Shown in pieces: positions 14,863 to 34,296 of a stretch of 64,000 nucleotides of DNA. The stretch lies in assembly GCA_951406725.2 (NCBI GenBank), contig OX597826.1, positions 51,274,001 through 51,338,000 on the forward strand. The letters are read 5' to 3'. Source of the stretch: Octopus vulgaris. Its lineage: Eukaryota. Under the pieces are notes generated by a model. The model saw nothing but the letters and a program-made list of their open reading frames with translations, did not search any database and was not told the DNA's origin. The first letter of the stretch is position 1. The number at the start of each line of letters is the position of its first letter. A program made the position numbers and the translations under genes.

Positions 14863-17098
14863 TTCATAAAATTTAACCGTTTCTGTTAAAGAAATTATTC
14901 CTTCCAAACACATTGCATGTTTGTTCTAATGTCTTTGAAAAGGATTCTTAAGAGATTAGAACGATGGGACAAACGAAGTTTTTGGAAATATCACGGAAAA
15001 GGGTGAACTGCAGAGCAGATCACATTTATGAGTTCAATTGTGTGACGGCAATCAATGAAGAGGTTTCTCACGATATAATAGTCGGCAAGACGAATACAAA
15101 CAACAATGTCGCAGTGAATGGCCGCGGAAAAACTCCATTCGATGTATCGTACAAGTGATAAAAGGAAGAGAAAATTAATAGAGGGAGAGCGAGAGAGAGG
15201 CAGAGAGAGAGAGAGAGGCAGAGAGACAGAGAAGGCGAGAGAAGGAGTGGAGAGAGAGAGAGAGAGAAGGAGAGAGAGAGAGTATGAGGAAAGCAGGTTG
15301 TTACTAATGGAAGAGGAAATACGTTGAAAGCTTAATGCATTTGTATGGAAAACAAGATAGATGGTCGGTTGCAGGGATAATCAGAGAGATGAAAGGAGAC
15401 AATACAAACAGACAGACATGGAGACATAGAGACTCATACATACTCACATACAAATAAACAGATATATTGCAGACAAATATACAGATATAGAGACACATAT
15501 TCTGTTTTACTTAGGTAATGCAATTTGAGTGCATCTAAGCCAGGTATTTATTCACTGAGAGTGCACAACAATTAAACAGTCACAAGGTACAAAGGCATAT
15601 ATACATACATAGACACATACATATGAATCTCTCTCTCTCTCTCTCTCTCTCTCTCTCTCTATATATATATATATATATATATATTTTGTAGTCATTTCAC
15701 TAGTAATAAACACCCGCATTGGTCCTGTTTCACTTCTTATTAAAATCATCTACCGCTTAAGTAAACGATTGCTTAATGTATTGTTCAGTCGATCAATAAG
15801 TCAACTAGGTTTGTCAAAGGCCTTTCGTCAACCCACGTGACCATTCCAATGACTATCTACTACAGGTCTACGTCAAATCTGTCTGCCTTATTATTTAGCA
15901 GAATGACCCTCCCGAGATACATCAAAATTTATTTCAATATATATATATATATATATATATATAGATCAGAGGCAACTCCAGGTCAACAGCTTCACATATA
16001 GTTTTAATATGTCTTTCTCCATTTCTAAGTTAAGGGTAAAAATAGGCAACCCTGCAAAACACAACTGATACTTATACACAGACGCACAGAATAACAGCAA
16101 TCAAATAACAACAGCGGAGTGCACAGCGAACATCAACGCTCTGATTGTCACCTGTACTCTTGACAAGAGGTGCCAGTTAGTCTTTTACACCTACCAGGCT
16201 CGTTCGTATTAGCCCGAATTGTTGGATAATTTTTCGTTTCTTTAAGAATACTGTAGAACGGAAACTTTTCATTGATTGGAATTTAAATCCTAATCTCTAG
16301 TAATTTTTTCAAGAAAACATCGAATTTTACGATTATAAACAACAACTCGGGCTGTAACTTCTGAGCCCGAGTCAGGCGCGTGTGAACAATGTGGAGAGAA
16401 CGTCTGCTAGGAATGATATTTTTTGACACAGAGCACCTCTAAAACAACCGCCAGATCTGAATGAAAATATATGAACTACGACCAGGCTCAATAAAAGGAA
16501 CCCGAGTTATTGACTGCAAATACATACTTGAAGTTAGTGTTAGCAGAAATTAAATAAGCCTGCAAATACACGTTCACTTTACTAAATTTATACTCAGGCT
16601 AAGCCTGAACTGCCCGAGTGCCGGAGTCACCACCGATATGTAAAGACAAAGCATGAAAGATTGCTTATATGTTAATTACACGTAAGGTAATTGTTGGTTA
16701 AATAATATTAATTGCAAAGAAGCGATGGTCACATACATACAAACTTATATACATACATGTATATATGTATATGTTTATATGTATATATATATATATATAT
16801 ATATATATATATATATATATGTATATGGCTATATACATATGTGTATATGGATATATATATATATATATATATATATATATATACATATATCAACTTTCTG
16901 AGCGAGAAGTAAAAAGTAGTAGTACGGAATCGTAAAATATAATTGCCAACTAAATGTGGTGGTTCCATATAAGACGATGCTACTGTCGTTTTTAGCCTCA
17001 GGAGGAAATCCCCTTCAGCTGGCTAGCCACTCCCTGTCTGTGTCCGATTAGTATTTGCGAGGGGAAATCATCGTTCCTATCTCTAGCTTTATGTGATA

Positions 17099-17145
17099 CA
17101 CACAGAACCGGGTTTCTGAGTAGTAACCCGTCATCAGTCTGTGAT
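17099..17145 (-). ncRNA. Type I hammerhead motif (inverted, more degenerate copy)
   Basis: Reverse complement: ATCACAGA-CTGATGA-C GGGT tact ACTC A-GAAA-CCCGGT-TC-TGTGTG. Confidence 0.6.
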
Positions 17146-17287
17146 AACCACGAGTTACTGATGAAAACTCGCTCAGAGATTTAATATTACTTATTTCTCC
17201 ATTCTTGTGATCAGCGACAGTTTGTCACTGGAAAAAGCACAGTATTTTGCATGTGGAATGAGTTTTCATCACTAGCTTGTGCTTATC

Positions 17288-17330
17288 ACACACTGATGAC
17301 GGGTTACTACTCAGAAACCTGGGTCTGTGT
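17288..17330 (+). ncRNA. Minimal type I hammerhead ribozyme motif
   Basis: ACACA-CTGATGA-C GGGT tact ACTC A-GAAA-CC tg GG-TC-TGTGT. Core intact, GUC triplet. Confidence 0.78.
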
Positions 17331-17917
17331 ATTTCACTTAAGGCTAGAGATGGGAACGATGATTTCCCCTTGCAAATACTAATCGGACACAGACAGTGTG
17401 TCGTTAGCCAGCTGGAGGAGATGTCCTCCTGGGGCGAAAAACAACAGTAGTATCGTCCTCTATGGGACCGCCACATTTAGTTGGTAATTATATTTTACGA
17501 TATATATATATATATATGAATTAAGCAAAAGGTATGTATGGACTACAATATACCACATTAAGGAAATATGGAATTTTGTCATCGTTATATCACTGGGAAT
17601 ATATATCAGCCATTGACTATTCAACTATCCACCCTATCAGTGTATGTGATGTGAGTACACGCACATATGAAGAAAATATGTATTATATTCGTGATTCATA
17701 CTTTCTGTTTGAAAGGCATAAGTAGTTGCCTCCAGTATATTGAAAAATAACTGCCAATCAGCAATCTCAAAAGGATTACAACACCAACGAATATAAACAT
17801 ATAACCAGAAGCCGTGTTGTAACAGTTCTTGTCTGGAGAGCGAAGGGACGCGAATCTCGTGGCGAAGTAAAAAAAAATTGATTACAAGATATATAATAAA
17901 AATTTGTGTATATATAT

Positions 17918-31559: not shown

Positions 31560-31693
31560 GCAACAAGAACAACAACAACAACAGCAGTGGCAGCAGCAGC
31601 AGCAGCAGCAGCAGCAGCAGCAGCAGCAGCAGCAGCAGCAGCAGCAGCAGCAGCAACAACAACAACAACAGCAGCAGCAGCAACAACAACAAC
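31560..31693. repeat. (CAG/CAA)n microsatellite
   Basis: Read directly; no coding context evident. Confidence 0.95.
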
Positions 31694-33647
31694 TTCTTTT
31701 ATAGAATATATAGCAGAAAGTATGTATACGTTTCTACAAAGATATACATACAGCTTTGTACACGCACCCACGAAAGTTCAAATACCTTGTCTACATATAT
31801 TATTCTCCGGAAATTGGACAGTTGGCATGGAGATAAAATAAATAACACTCAAGTAAACAAACAAGATAATATGCACACACCCACACACACTCATATATAC
31901 ACACATATATTTATTTATACAAACATACATGTATTTACATGTGTATATTTATATATGTATACACACACACATACACACACACACGAGCAAAGAACATACA
32001 CGTTATATATGTATAATGAATAACTTGAGAGATATTATCGAATTTTCTTAGATAGTATTAGGCAGTGATGGTGGTGGGGGAAATATTTGTCTCCAGAAAA
32101 TAAAAATGCTCTCACCATCACCACCAACATCAACACTGCTGCCTCCACCCCCAACAACATCAACAACTGCATTCTCTATTTTCTGTCTCGTTGGCTTTTT
32201 ATTTTATATATATATATATATATATATATATATATATATATATATATATATATATTAGTATGTATGTACGCACACACGGACATGCTTGTTTACTTAAACA
32301 CACACGTGCACACACGCACACAAACACGCACACATACACACACACACATATCGTTGATGCATCTGCTCAGCAGAAGGGCCTAATAGGTTATGTTAGTCCT
32401 CTTGGAGGCAAATAAAAAAAGAAATACAACGAATACGATAGAGAAAGGAAAAAAAAAACGAAGAAACAAAGGAAGACCAAAAGCAAAAAGAAACAAACAA
32501 ATACTGTTTCGATGAAACTAAATAACGAACTAAACTGGTAAGGATGGTACACTTGATAAGGAGCCAATTATAATGACTTCGCATATAAACATCCGCCATC
32601 TTGAATTGTTGCAGTAAAGCTACGATATTTAGTTACAAATATACAATATAGAACATGAAAATCAGATTGATGGAAAGGAGCAAAAATAGGATAAATAGCT
32701 ATTTTAAATTTGAAATGTCTATTCTTTTGTTTCATTTTATTTACTCCCCCAAGGAATTCTTTTGTTTGCTTGTGAAATCTCTATAAGGCTCTTGAATTTT
32801 CTATTTTGAAAACGAAATTTAGAAACAAAGTGCGCTAAATATAATTTCTTATAAGTTGTTTCGTTATTTTTTTATTTCATTTTAGTTTATGAAGAAATCT
32901 TAAACAAAAACGTTATATTACACTTGAAAAATAAAATAAAACGAAATTTCTTGTAGACAGGTAGAAAAATCTTAGTAGGAGATGTTGAGTGTAATAAATA
33001 TCATGATAATATGAGGTGTTGATGGGTTTGTAGGAAAGCAACATGCTAAGTAGTGGGTTGAGATAAAACATAGATCACCAGATAAAAACGTCTTACAAAT
33101 TAAAAGCAGTCAGGAATTAGAATTTATTCTAGATTCCCAATATTCCGTTAGTCTCCTTCAATATCTAAATGCGAAGTTTCGAGAAGCTAGAATTATTACT
33201 GCATTTATTAAAACCCTCGTTAAATATATAGTATTCCCACTCATTTTTTTAAAGTCGCATACTGTAACTCTTCAAAACGTATTTAGAAAATTTGTGTTGT
33301 TACTGTTGTTTTTACTCTCAGGTCAGCACTGATGCAGCAGACCAATAACTACAAATGTTTCCCACCCTGGACATCCCACTTTTAATTCTTACACAGGCGT
33401 GGCTGTGGTAAGATGTTTGCTTCCTAACCACATGGTTTCAGTCCCATTGTGTGGCATCATGAGCAACTGTTTTCAACTATAACCTCGGGAAGGCCAAAAT
33501 CTACTAAGGTAGACGGAAACAGAAGGAAGCCTGTCGTATATATATATATATATATATATATATATATATATATATATATGATATATCTGTGTGTGTATTT
33601 GTGGCTACATACATACATACATACATACATACATACATACATACATA

Positions 33648-33723
33648 GAAAATACCCTGTTGATGTTGTCGAAATTCCAACGAAAGAGCCTTGGATCTAG
33701 GTTAGAAACATGCTTTTTTTCTA
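33648..33723 (+). mobile_element. Fragment of the (CATA)n-associated LINE 3' UTR
   Basis: GAAATTCCAACGAAAGAGCCTTGGATCTAGGTTAGAA is identical to 5530-5566 and follows (CATA)n. Confidence 0.75.
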
Positions 33724-34296
33724 ATGGTTTCTGGGTCATTTCTTTTCATCAGCACAGGAAAACCGTTGGCTCGAGATGGCAGCACTAGTTCTTGCTCGAG
33801 ATATATACTTTTAAAGTGACACACAGGCTCTGATCTCGAAAAGAGGAAAACACTGAGTTTTAAATCTCTGAGCGAGATGTAATTAGGAAAATAGTACTAC
33901 AGAGTAAAACTTTCCTGGGGCTAAAAACAGGTAGTAACATCGTCATAAGCAGGGTTGCCGATTTACGTTGGCAAATAGATTTTACTCTGTAGTTGTGTTT
34001 TCCTCTTTACGAGATCAGTGACTGTGTGTTACTTTAGAGGGATATACCTCTGTGCCGATGAAACGAAATAACCCAGAAACCATGGTTCGCAGGTACCGTT
34101 TGAGGCTGAGTGGGGACATTAGCTCTCTTGTTCGGGGTATAAGAACGCAGTTGTGTGTCAGTAGCTAGCTGGAAAAGTTGTTTTCCCGAGGCTAAAAAAA
34201 AATGGTAGTAATAACGTCCTAAGCAGGACTGCCATTTTACTTTGGCAAATAAATTTTACTCTCTAGTACTGTTACTACTTACTTCTCGCTTAGAGT
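33724..34296 (+). mobile_element. Hammerhead retrozyme-like element, family 1: inverted part (33724-33910) plus direct unit with internal deletions (274-nt period)
   Basis: TTGGCAAAT..ATTTTACTC at 33968 and 34242. The inverted part carries a truncated hammerhead (reverse complement CTGTG-CTGATGA...CCCA-GAAA-CCAT, 33724-33757). Confidence 0.75.
34050..34092 (+). ncRNA. Degenerate type I hammerhead motif
   Basis: CTGTG-CcGATGA-AACGAAATAACCCA-GAAA-CCATGG-TT-CGCAG; palindrome ACCATGGT. Confidence 0.6.

Follow-up and report, generated by a model that had tools for sequence, protein, structure and literature searches.

What kind of element left the three related repeat loci found in a 64,000-nt stretch of the Octopus vulgaris genome (contig OX597826.1, positions 51,274,001 to 51,338,000; hereafter the window)? 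A sequence-only reading had described them as diverged copies of a unit of about 355 nt that carries a hammerhead ribozyme and was made from a tandem or circular RNA template. We hold with good confidence that each locus is the decayed remnant of an inserted non-coding hammerhead retroelement (a non-long terminal repeat, or non-LTR, retrozyme), for which a Penelope-like element (PLE) likely supplied integration in trans, with a circular monomer RNA probably serving as template. The homology of the three loci was borne out (62–69% pairwise; best E 3e-13 to 5e-24), and the claimed motif order, from GATCAG.GA to CTCG, was kept in the aligned subfamily units. A single unit copy per locus, as had been supposed, was not found; instead, the loci each consist of two partial units, inverted relative to one another and placed head to head. 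The earlier reading overlooked this inverted arm and did not name a Penelope-type integration mechanism.

The genome searched comprises 2.8 Gb in 227 contigs and is rich in microsatellites. With loci 1, 2, and 3 taken as subfamilies A, B, and C, first-look candidates genome-wide numbered 2796, 2149, and 891, respectively, and 40 candidates of each subfamily were scored. The loci examined were the top-scoring or first-listed ones, a few hundred among several thousand. Across the whole genome, an exact hammerhead pattern gave 1211 matches vs. 2 for a reversed control, and an exact central-hairpin pattern gave 4875 vs. 0. Two further subfamilies, D and the young F, were found. The unit is 350–358 nt long with a GC content of 0.41–0.45 and no open reading frame (ORF), and subfamily units are 62–88% identical to one another. 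Subfamily F has a 353-nt unit, copies that are mostly 97–100% identical with the CTGACGA core intact (L254–L264, L297–L316), and 182 exact tandem-junction matches genome-wide. Tandem units with at least two consecutive ribozymes are present in the family, with arms of up to 6.0 units in F and 3.1 units in L019; in the window, an arm holds at most one complete ribozyme. L256 and L260, two F copies 1 Mb apart, go back to a single insertion that was duplicated in inverted orientation together with its flanking DNA (2.4 kb, 97.9%). Matches to a B-like variant of the central hairpin cluster toward the beginning of contig C1, with 30 of them in the first 6.8 Mb (G000:C1:0.19-6.8 Mb, L224–L253), possibly a subtelomeric enrichment.

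The ends of the insertions were mapped in a main set of 88 loci (90 minus 2 duplicates, the three window loci included), with unit position 1 as the first base 3′ of the predicted cleavage site. The claim that copies begin at different points of the unit was right for the 5′ ends, which were scattered across it; the 3′ ends were fixed at two sites approximately 45–60 nt apart: S1 (unit 160–180) and S2 (unit 214–237), both windows being set after inspection of the 88-locus data. The right end fell in one of these windows at 76 of 88 loci, as did the left end of the inverted arm at 31 of 46. S1 and S2 also held 70 of 88 arms (57 loci) in a length-unbiased set obtained with short 3′ queries, which overlaps the 88-locus set in part, 27 of 41 outer ends (29 loci) among loci picked by the hammerhead pattern alone, and 52 of 55 ends (33 loci) in young F, where the positions were 171–174 and 216–221. 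Two-armed loci with both ends classified showed one S1 and one S2 end in 27/29, 16/16, 5/5, and 19/19 cases in these four sets, respectively. The inverted arm was present in 46 of the 88 loci and absent in 42. A microsatellite lay in the flank of 58/88 loci, vs. 11.7% of 3432 background 30-mers. Flank duplications were of variable length and confined to a subset of loci (9–14 nt in some), and exceeded shuffled pairing (6.77 vs. 5.38 ± 0.28, 88-locus set). Young arms overlapped by 1–6 nt at 18 of 22 junctions.

As described, PLE insertions may carry a tail at one end, include an inverted copy that is 5′-truncated, and are biased toward (TA)n (PMC8557442, PMC3846280), and in vitro a PLE used two internal reverse-transcription starts and extended both DNA strands (PMC11167929). 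In the octopus family, two kinds of 3′ end occur together with an inverted 5′ arm and with (TA)n targets, a combination that points to PLE-type integration. We consider it highly likely that the family is mobilised by a PLE reverse transcriptase (RT) and GIY-YIG endonuclease. A genome search with PF01541 brought up a young PLE that is intact, along with pieces of other PLEs, and the genome contains many intact 781-aa RT plus GIY-YIG frames. Copies of the young PLE have two 3′ ends, 35 nt apart, that run into (TA)n. Thus, a genuine PLE in this genome shows the two-ended layout; as the helper it is no more than a candidate, given that its sequence does not match the unit and its tail length differs.

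This autonomous PLE (L121–L126, e.g., G000:C16:20833800-20843000) has many intact copies of its 781-aa frame, and L124 shows a second frame of 479 aa upstream. Its pseudo-LTR (pLTR) is approximately 456 nt long and ends in a hammerhead-like motif whose core is altered (TTGATAA) and whose palindrome is AACATGTT. In L197 and L198, copies of the octopus family are inserted in the (TA)n tracts that mark the 3′ ends of PLEs from other families; by eye, these PLEs have hammerhead-like motifs with a palindromic stem III of their own.

The three hammerheads proposed for the window were found as motifs, although the cores of loci 2 and 3 are degenerate and Rfam matched none of the three. Covariation, which had been predicted to hold in a larger alignment, was assessed in 85 copies from subfamilies A, B, and C. 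Hammerhead positions were paired in 88.8% of cells, with 257 double changes vs. 97.7 in shuffled and at most 106 in slid alignments; these double changes are mostly subfamily markers and so amount to a handful of independent events. Stems I and III covaried. Stem I changed as claimed, from ACACA/TGTGT to TCTGTG/CACAGA to CTGTG/CGCAG with pairing retained, and it extends to 10 pairs with two bulges and double changes in 8 pairs. Covariation of stem II, also claimed, was hardly seen (79.8% of cells paired, with one pair broken in 32/85 rows). Stem III is a six-base palindrome that varies as a palindrome (CCCGGG, CCGCGG, CCATGG, and, in genome-wide pattern matches, CTCGAG and CTGCAG). The hexamer was perfectly palindromic in 38 of 76 ungapped rows vs. 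14.1 ± 3.1 when the halves were shuffled, and hammerheads with a palindromic stem III are reported to cleave in dimeric form (PMC4209133). Outside the ribozyme, the predicted circular folds of the A, B, and C units had a common shape, with a long rod below the ribozyme and a cluster of hairpins. RNAalifold on 34 copies gave 37 pairs, 18 of them with a double change, and single window copies folded better than 100/100 shuffles (z −3.9 and −3.1).

The tandem or circular template of the sequence-only reading is supported: in a set selected without regard to length, the ribozyme cleavage site lies within 38 of 88 arms, and 18 of 88 are longer than one unit. The permutation, however, is not random. 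The 5′ ends lay at the cleavage site in 3/88 right arms and 2/46 inverted arms of the 88-locus set, and within 10 nt of it in 7/88 arms of the short-query set, no more commonly than in neighboring windows. A cleaved linear monomer as the usual template was ruled out by the arms that cross the cleavage site, the arms longer than one unit, and the missing pile-up of 5′ ends. In 133 old loci, private variants were common to the repeats of one locus 2-times to 4-times more often than between loci, and equally so for tandem and inverted pairs. Haplotypes were read from 32 young F loci (33 minus one complex locus, the segmental duplicate having been left out earlier). Among their substitutions, 52 occurred in every repeat of the insertion concerned, 5 in part of the repeats, and 99 in a single repeat, and 15 haplotypes were distinguished. 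Divergence was 0.74% between tandem rounds, 0.86% between opposite arms, and 1.5% between loci. Haplotypes are thus uniform within insertions and rounds differ as arms do; therefore, most multi-unit arms date from the insertion itself, via a one-unit bottleneck. Such a bottleneck is what a circle would give, and it favors a monomer circle as template, which we think is probably, by a modest degree, the usual one. Long-armed F loci were chosen as tandem, so their arm-length distribution is not representative.

The family is transcribed at some level. In three RNA runs (approximately 6% of each), 452–643 reads per run matched the locus-1 unit at 80% likeness, mostly from a D/F-like relative and in both mate directions; reads with at least 99% identity to the window copy numbered 2–4, too few to show its own transcription.

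In the cycle that we propose, a locus with at least two ribozymes would be transcribed, and the ribozymes would pair via the palindromic stem III and excise a monomer, which would then be circularised. A PLE protein would cleave (TA)n-rich DNA and prime reverse transcription inside the RNA, at S1 from one DNA end and at S2 from the other. Each complementary DNA (cDNA) could extend a variable distance, past the cleavage site and round again, and the two cDNAs would meet head to head, with microhomology of a few bases at the join. On the full claim, that the family records a Penelope-type enzyme copying an RNA circle made by the ribozyme in rolling-circle fashion, with two different fixed starts on the two sides of one DNA break, we regard the case as evenly balanced.

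Several results weigh against this reading or parts of it. The CTGANGA plus GAAA core was kept in only 39 of 85 aligned old copies, and a young F copy scored 32.2 bits (E 3.3e-6) against Rfam Hammerhead_1 (RF00163), below the gathering score of 34. Nothing in the window reached the Rfam gathering level, 17260–17360 gave no hammerhead hit, and none of 117 weak hits in 16500–34700 was a hammerhead. Neither end of locus 3 falls at S1 or S2. In BLAST and nhmmer comparisons, the unit matched none of 36 GIY-YIG loci, mostly of one family and out of 6136 first-look candidates, except for separately inserted neighbors. The young PLE end aligned to the units at shuffle level (61–215 of 300 shuffles equally good), and its tail measures 35 nt vs. 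45–60 nt in the unit family. RNA read starts and ends showed no pile-up at the cleavage site, in 150-nt cDNA libraries that are ill suited to reveal one. Four of the 32 young loci contain mixed units, matched in register across the two arms in L299 and L312; a multi-unit template would explain this. In the longest arrays, internal rounds were 0.25% apart vs. 0.71% for end rounds; these arrays were expanded or homogenised as DNA, at least in part.

The last two observations speak for an account that retains the same element and a PLE helper and takes as template an uncleaved linear multi-unit transcript from tandem loci, with long arms also growing by DNA amplification and circles playing no part. 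It can draw on the mixed, in-register units and the local homogenisation, on potential source loci of up to 6 units, on the finding that an anole PLE could do without hammerhead cleavage in vitro (PMC11167929), and on the failure of 8 of 9 Xenopus retrozyme dimers to cleave (10.64898/2026.07.22.740005). However, the 15 nested haplotypes, uniform over rounds and arms, would demand a one-unit bottleneck for each new variant, rounds are as old as arms, and the ribozyme and the closed fold are conserved over subfamilies that have diverged to 62–88% identity. We hold this account possible but doubtful. It appears unlikely that the loci are no more than the 5′-truncated ends, a pLTR with its tail, left by some autonomous PLE yet to be found. 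Their layout equals that of truncated PLE insertions, Xenopus retrozymes are homologous to pLTRs (10.64898/2026.07.22.740005), and the loci examined are a small, top-scoring or first-listed share; yet the arms pass seamlessly from unit to unit and not into an ORF. Among 184 unit loci scanned, a PLE protein fragment lay within the locus in 6, and in the three that were read through (L197, L198, L206) simple repeats or other elements separated it from the unit. No ORF running on from the unit was found among the unit loci examined, and tblastn of the PLE protein gave no match in the window.

Two explanations dispense with a PLE altogether. A SINE-like passenger of an ordinary long interspersed element (LINE; SINE, short interspersed element), or satellite DNA dispersed by DNA-level recombination, is very unlikely: LINE fragments are common near the loci and one array grew as DNA, but a simple pattern scan found no transfer RNA (tRNA) head and no RNA polymerase III A or B box, there is neither poly(A) nor a single fixed 3′ end, and two complementary 3′ ends with overlapping inverted arms are PLE traits. 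By the same scan, a tRNA-derived SINE was excluded. A DNA foldback element or MITE (miniature inverted-repeat transposable element) with long terminal inverted repeats would account for the inverted arms at every window locus and for the 9–14-nt flank duplications at some loci. The end mapping has already largely refuted it, and we give it hardly any weight: outer ends differ (S1 vs. S2), arms are unequal and vary in length, many loci have no inverted arm at all, the duplication length is not fixed, and covariation at the RNA level and head-to-tail repeats are present. The DNA MITE that the sequence-only reading named as the alternative would have symmetric, fixed termini and duplications of fixed length, which were not observed.

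By testable features of its sequence, the retrozyme family identified here belongs with the metazoan non-LTR retrozymes of coral, mussel, and axolotl (PMC7229834, 10.64898/2026.07.22.740005). Its unit lies within 150–450 bp and below 50% GC and has no ORF, and covariation argues for a type I hammerhead in each unit, degenerate in loci 2 and 3. Both groups have a non-coding unit of approximately 350 nt (350–390 in mussel) with one type I hammerhead and a short palindromic stem III, a GC content of 41–45%, head-to-tail repeats, a compact predicted circular fold, and co-existing autonomous PLEs. Most copies of the octopus family are partial units, scattered as inverted pairs whose 3′ ends fall at two fixed sites; the retrozyme accounts compared here do not describe such ends. 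Cleavage and circles were shown experimentally for published retrozymes, whereas for the octopus family both are predicted; PLE mobilisation was proposed there from co-occurrence and pLTR homology, whereas no pLTR homologue was found here among the 36 GIY-YIG loci compared.

The features expected of PLE-mobilised elements, namely an inverted 5′-truncated arm, simple-repeat targets, and variable target-site duplications (TSDs), are all present in the family. With endonuclease-bearing (EN+) PLEs (Penelope/Poseidon, Neptune; PMC8557442, PMC3846280, PMC4209133, PMC11167929) it shares the optional tail at one end, that inverted arm, variable 5′ truncation, variable or absent TSDs, simple-repeat targets, an extra base between hammerhead positions 9 and 10.1, and a palindromic helix III. 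It differs in having no RT/GIY-YIG ORF, a tail of 45–60 nt vs. 30–40, 3′ ends 170–230 nt downstream of the cleavage site, and a repeated unit that makes up the whole element. An autonomous EN+ PLE was excluded, as no RT plus GIY-YIG ORF was present in the window or contiguous at the unit loci examined. Chlamys non-autonomous PLEs such as MRC1 (PMC8557442) likewise form pLTRs and multicopy head-to-tail insertions, but their 3′ ends are generally shared with an autonomous family, whereas no matched partner was found for the octopus family, and the MRC1 clade lacks the canonical hammerhead that the octopus family has. No octopus or cephalopod retrozyme and no PLE-type retrozyme ends were found in the literature searched; Repbase, Dfam, and supplements lay outside that search and may list the family under another name. 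In the main text of an octopus repeat annotation (PMC13282606; supplements and repeat library not covered), "ribozyme" occurs 0 times.

Within the window, a self-comparison returned the three loci and no further copy, and a motif scan of both strands gave only three hammerhead matches, all on the plus strand (Table 1). At locus 1, the inverted arm adjoins (TA)n and the direct arm runs into (TA)n; 16929–17170 and 17260–17501 are 88% complementary. The predicted cleavage of its plus-strand hammerhead is after 17325, and its minus-strand hammerhead has an intact CTGATGA core with one change each in stem I and stem III. At locus 2, the complementary arm segments are 21772–21904 and 21956–22088, and (CA)n directly follows the direct arm. 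The claimed 355-nt period held there (65-nt direct repeat at 21969 and 22324, 89%) and failed at locus 3, where two deletions leave approximately 272 nt. By the conserved-core rule, the locus 2 hammerhead is likely inactive. The left end is S2 and the right end S1 at loci 1 and 2, and the inverted arm of locus 3 terminates within hammerhead stem III. No ORF of at least 110 aa lies inside the three loci; one microsatellite frame overlaps the final 17 nt of locus 3. The three copies are old, and they are probably dead.

Table 1. Arms and hammerhead motifs of the three window loci (window coordinates; unit positions as defined in the text)
Feature	Position	Strand	Description
Locus 1 inverted arm	16887..17170	-	Subfamily A; unit 293 to 218 via cleavage site; 3′ end S2; 90% to subfamily unit
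Locus 1 second hammerhead	17100..17143	-	Inside inverted arm; read directly from sequence
Locus 1 direct arm	17168..17501	+	Unit 199 to 176, 0.94 unit; 3′ end S1; 94% to subfamily unit
Locus 1 type I hammerhead motif	17288..17330	+	Motif scan and pair counts; core CTGATGA...GAAA, GTC triplet
Locus 2 inverted arm	21771..21963	-	Subfamily B; three pieces, unit 117-229, 48-91, 130-153; outer 3′ end S2
Locus 2 direct arm	21969..22388	+	Unit ~109 to 173, 1.2 units in head-to-tail order, 355-nt period; 3′ end S1
Locus 2 hammerhead motif	22176..22218	+	Degenerate core CCGGAGA; palindromic stem III CCGCGG
Locus 3 inverted arm	33724..33909	-	Subfamily C; unit 163 to 346
Locus 3 direct arm	33911..34295	+	Unit 95 to 204 over junction; two internal deletions, period ~272
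Locus 3 hammerhead motif	34050..34092	+	Core CCGATGA with GTT triplet; stem II weak, stem III a palindrome (CCATGG)

Other elements in the window include frames at 27796–28131, 28539–28880, 9655–10089 (minus), and 7971–8528 (plus), which resemble mariner transposase fragments and the end of an RTE-type LINE, and what is presumably a SINE-like element at 33390–33720, directly adjoining the truncated left end of locus 3. A short foldback at 30040–30190, matched by several microRNA-hairpin models, is perhaps a MITE. Outside the window, a subfamily D array of 8.9 units with no clear TSD (L221:2904-6050; G000:C2:14086400-14089550) was considered as a rolling-circle product and rejected, with internal units 1–4 sites off the majority and the 5′ edge off by 16/161 (~10% divergent). 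Its host sequence resembles a PIF1/Helitron helicase remnant.

The value of the family lies in its end and haplotype evidence and in the young subfamily, not in the three old window copies. For a retrozyme family, the genomic evidence that a PLE mobilises it is unusually direct. The PLE end signature was seen in four separately chosen locus sets, the rule of one S1 and one S2 end in two-armed copies is a sharp constraint on the PLE enzyme's use of two start sites, and the young subfamily allows the form of the template to be read from haplotypes. Published work leaves open what mobilises animal retrozymes and whether circles serve as templates (PMC7229834; 10.64898/2026.07.22.740005). If our reading is true, PLEs would be the helpers of retrozymes, a link proposed before but without insertion anatomy in the papers compared, and the young subfamily, with copies 97–100% identical and an intact core, would be a ready system in which to show retrozyme circles as transposition intermediates.

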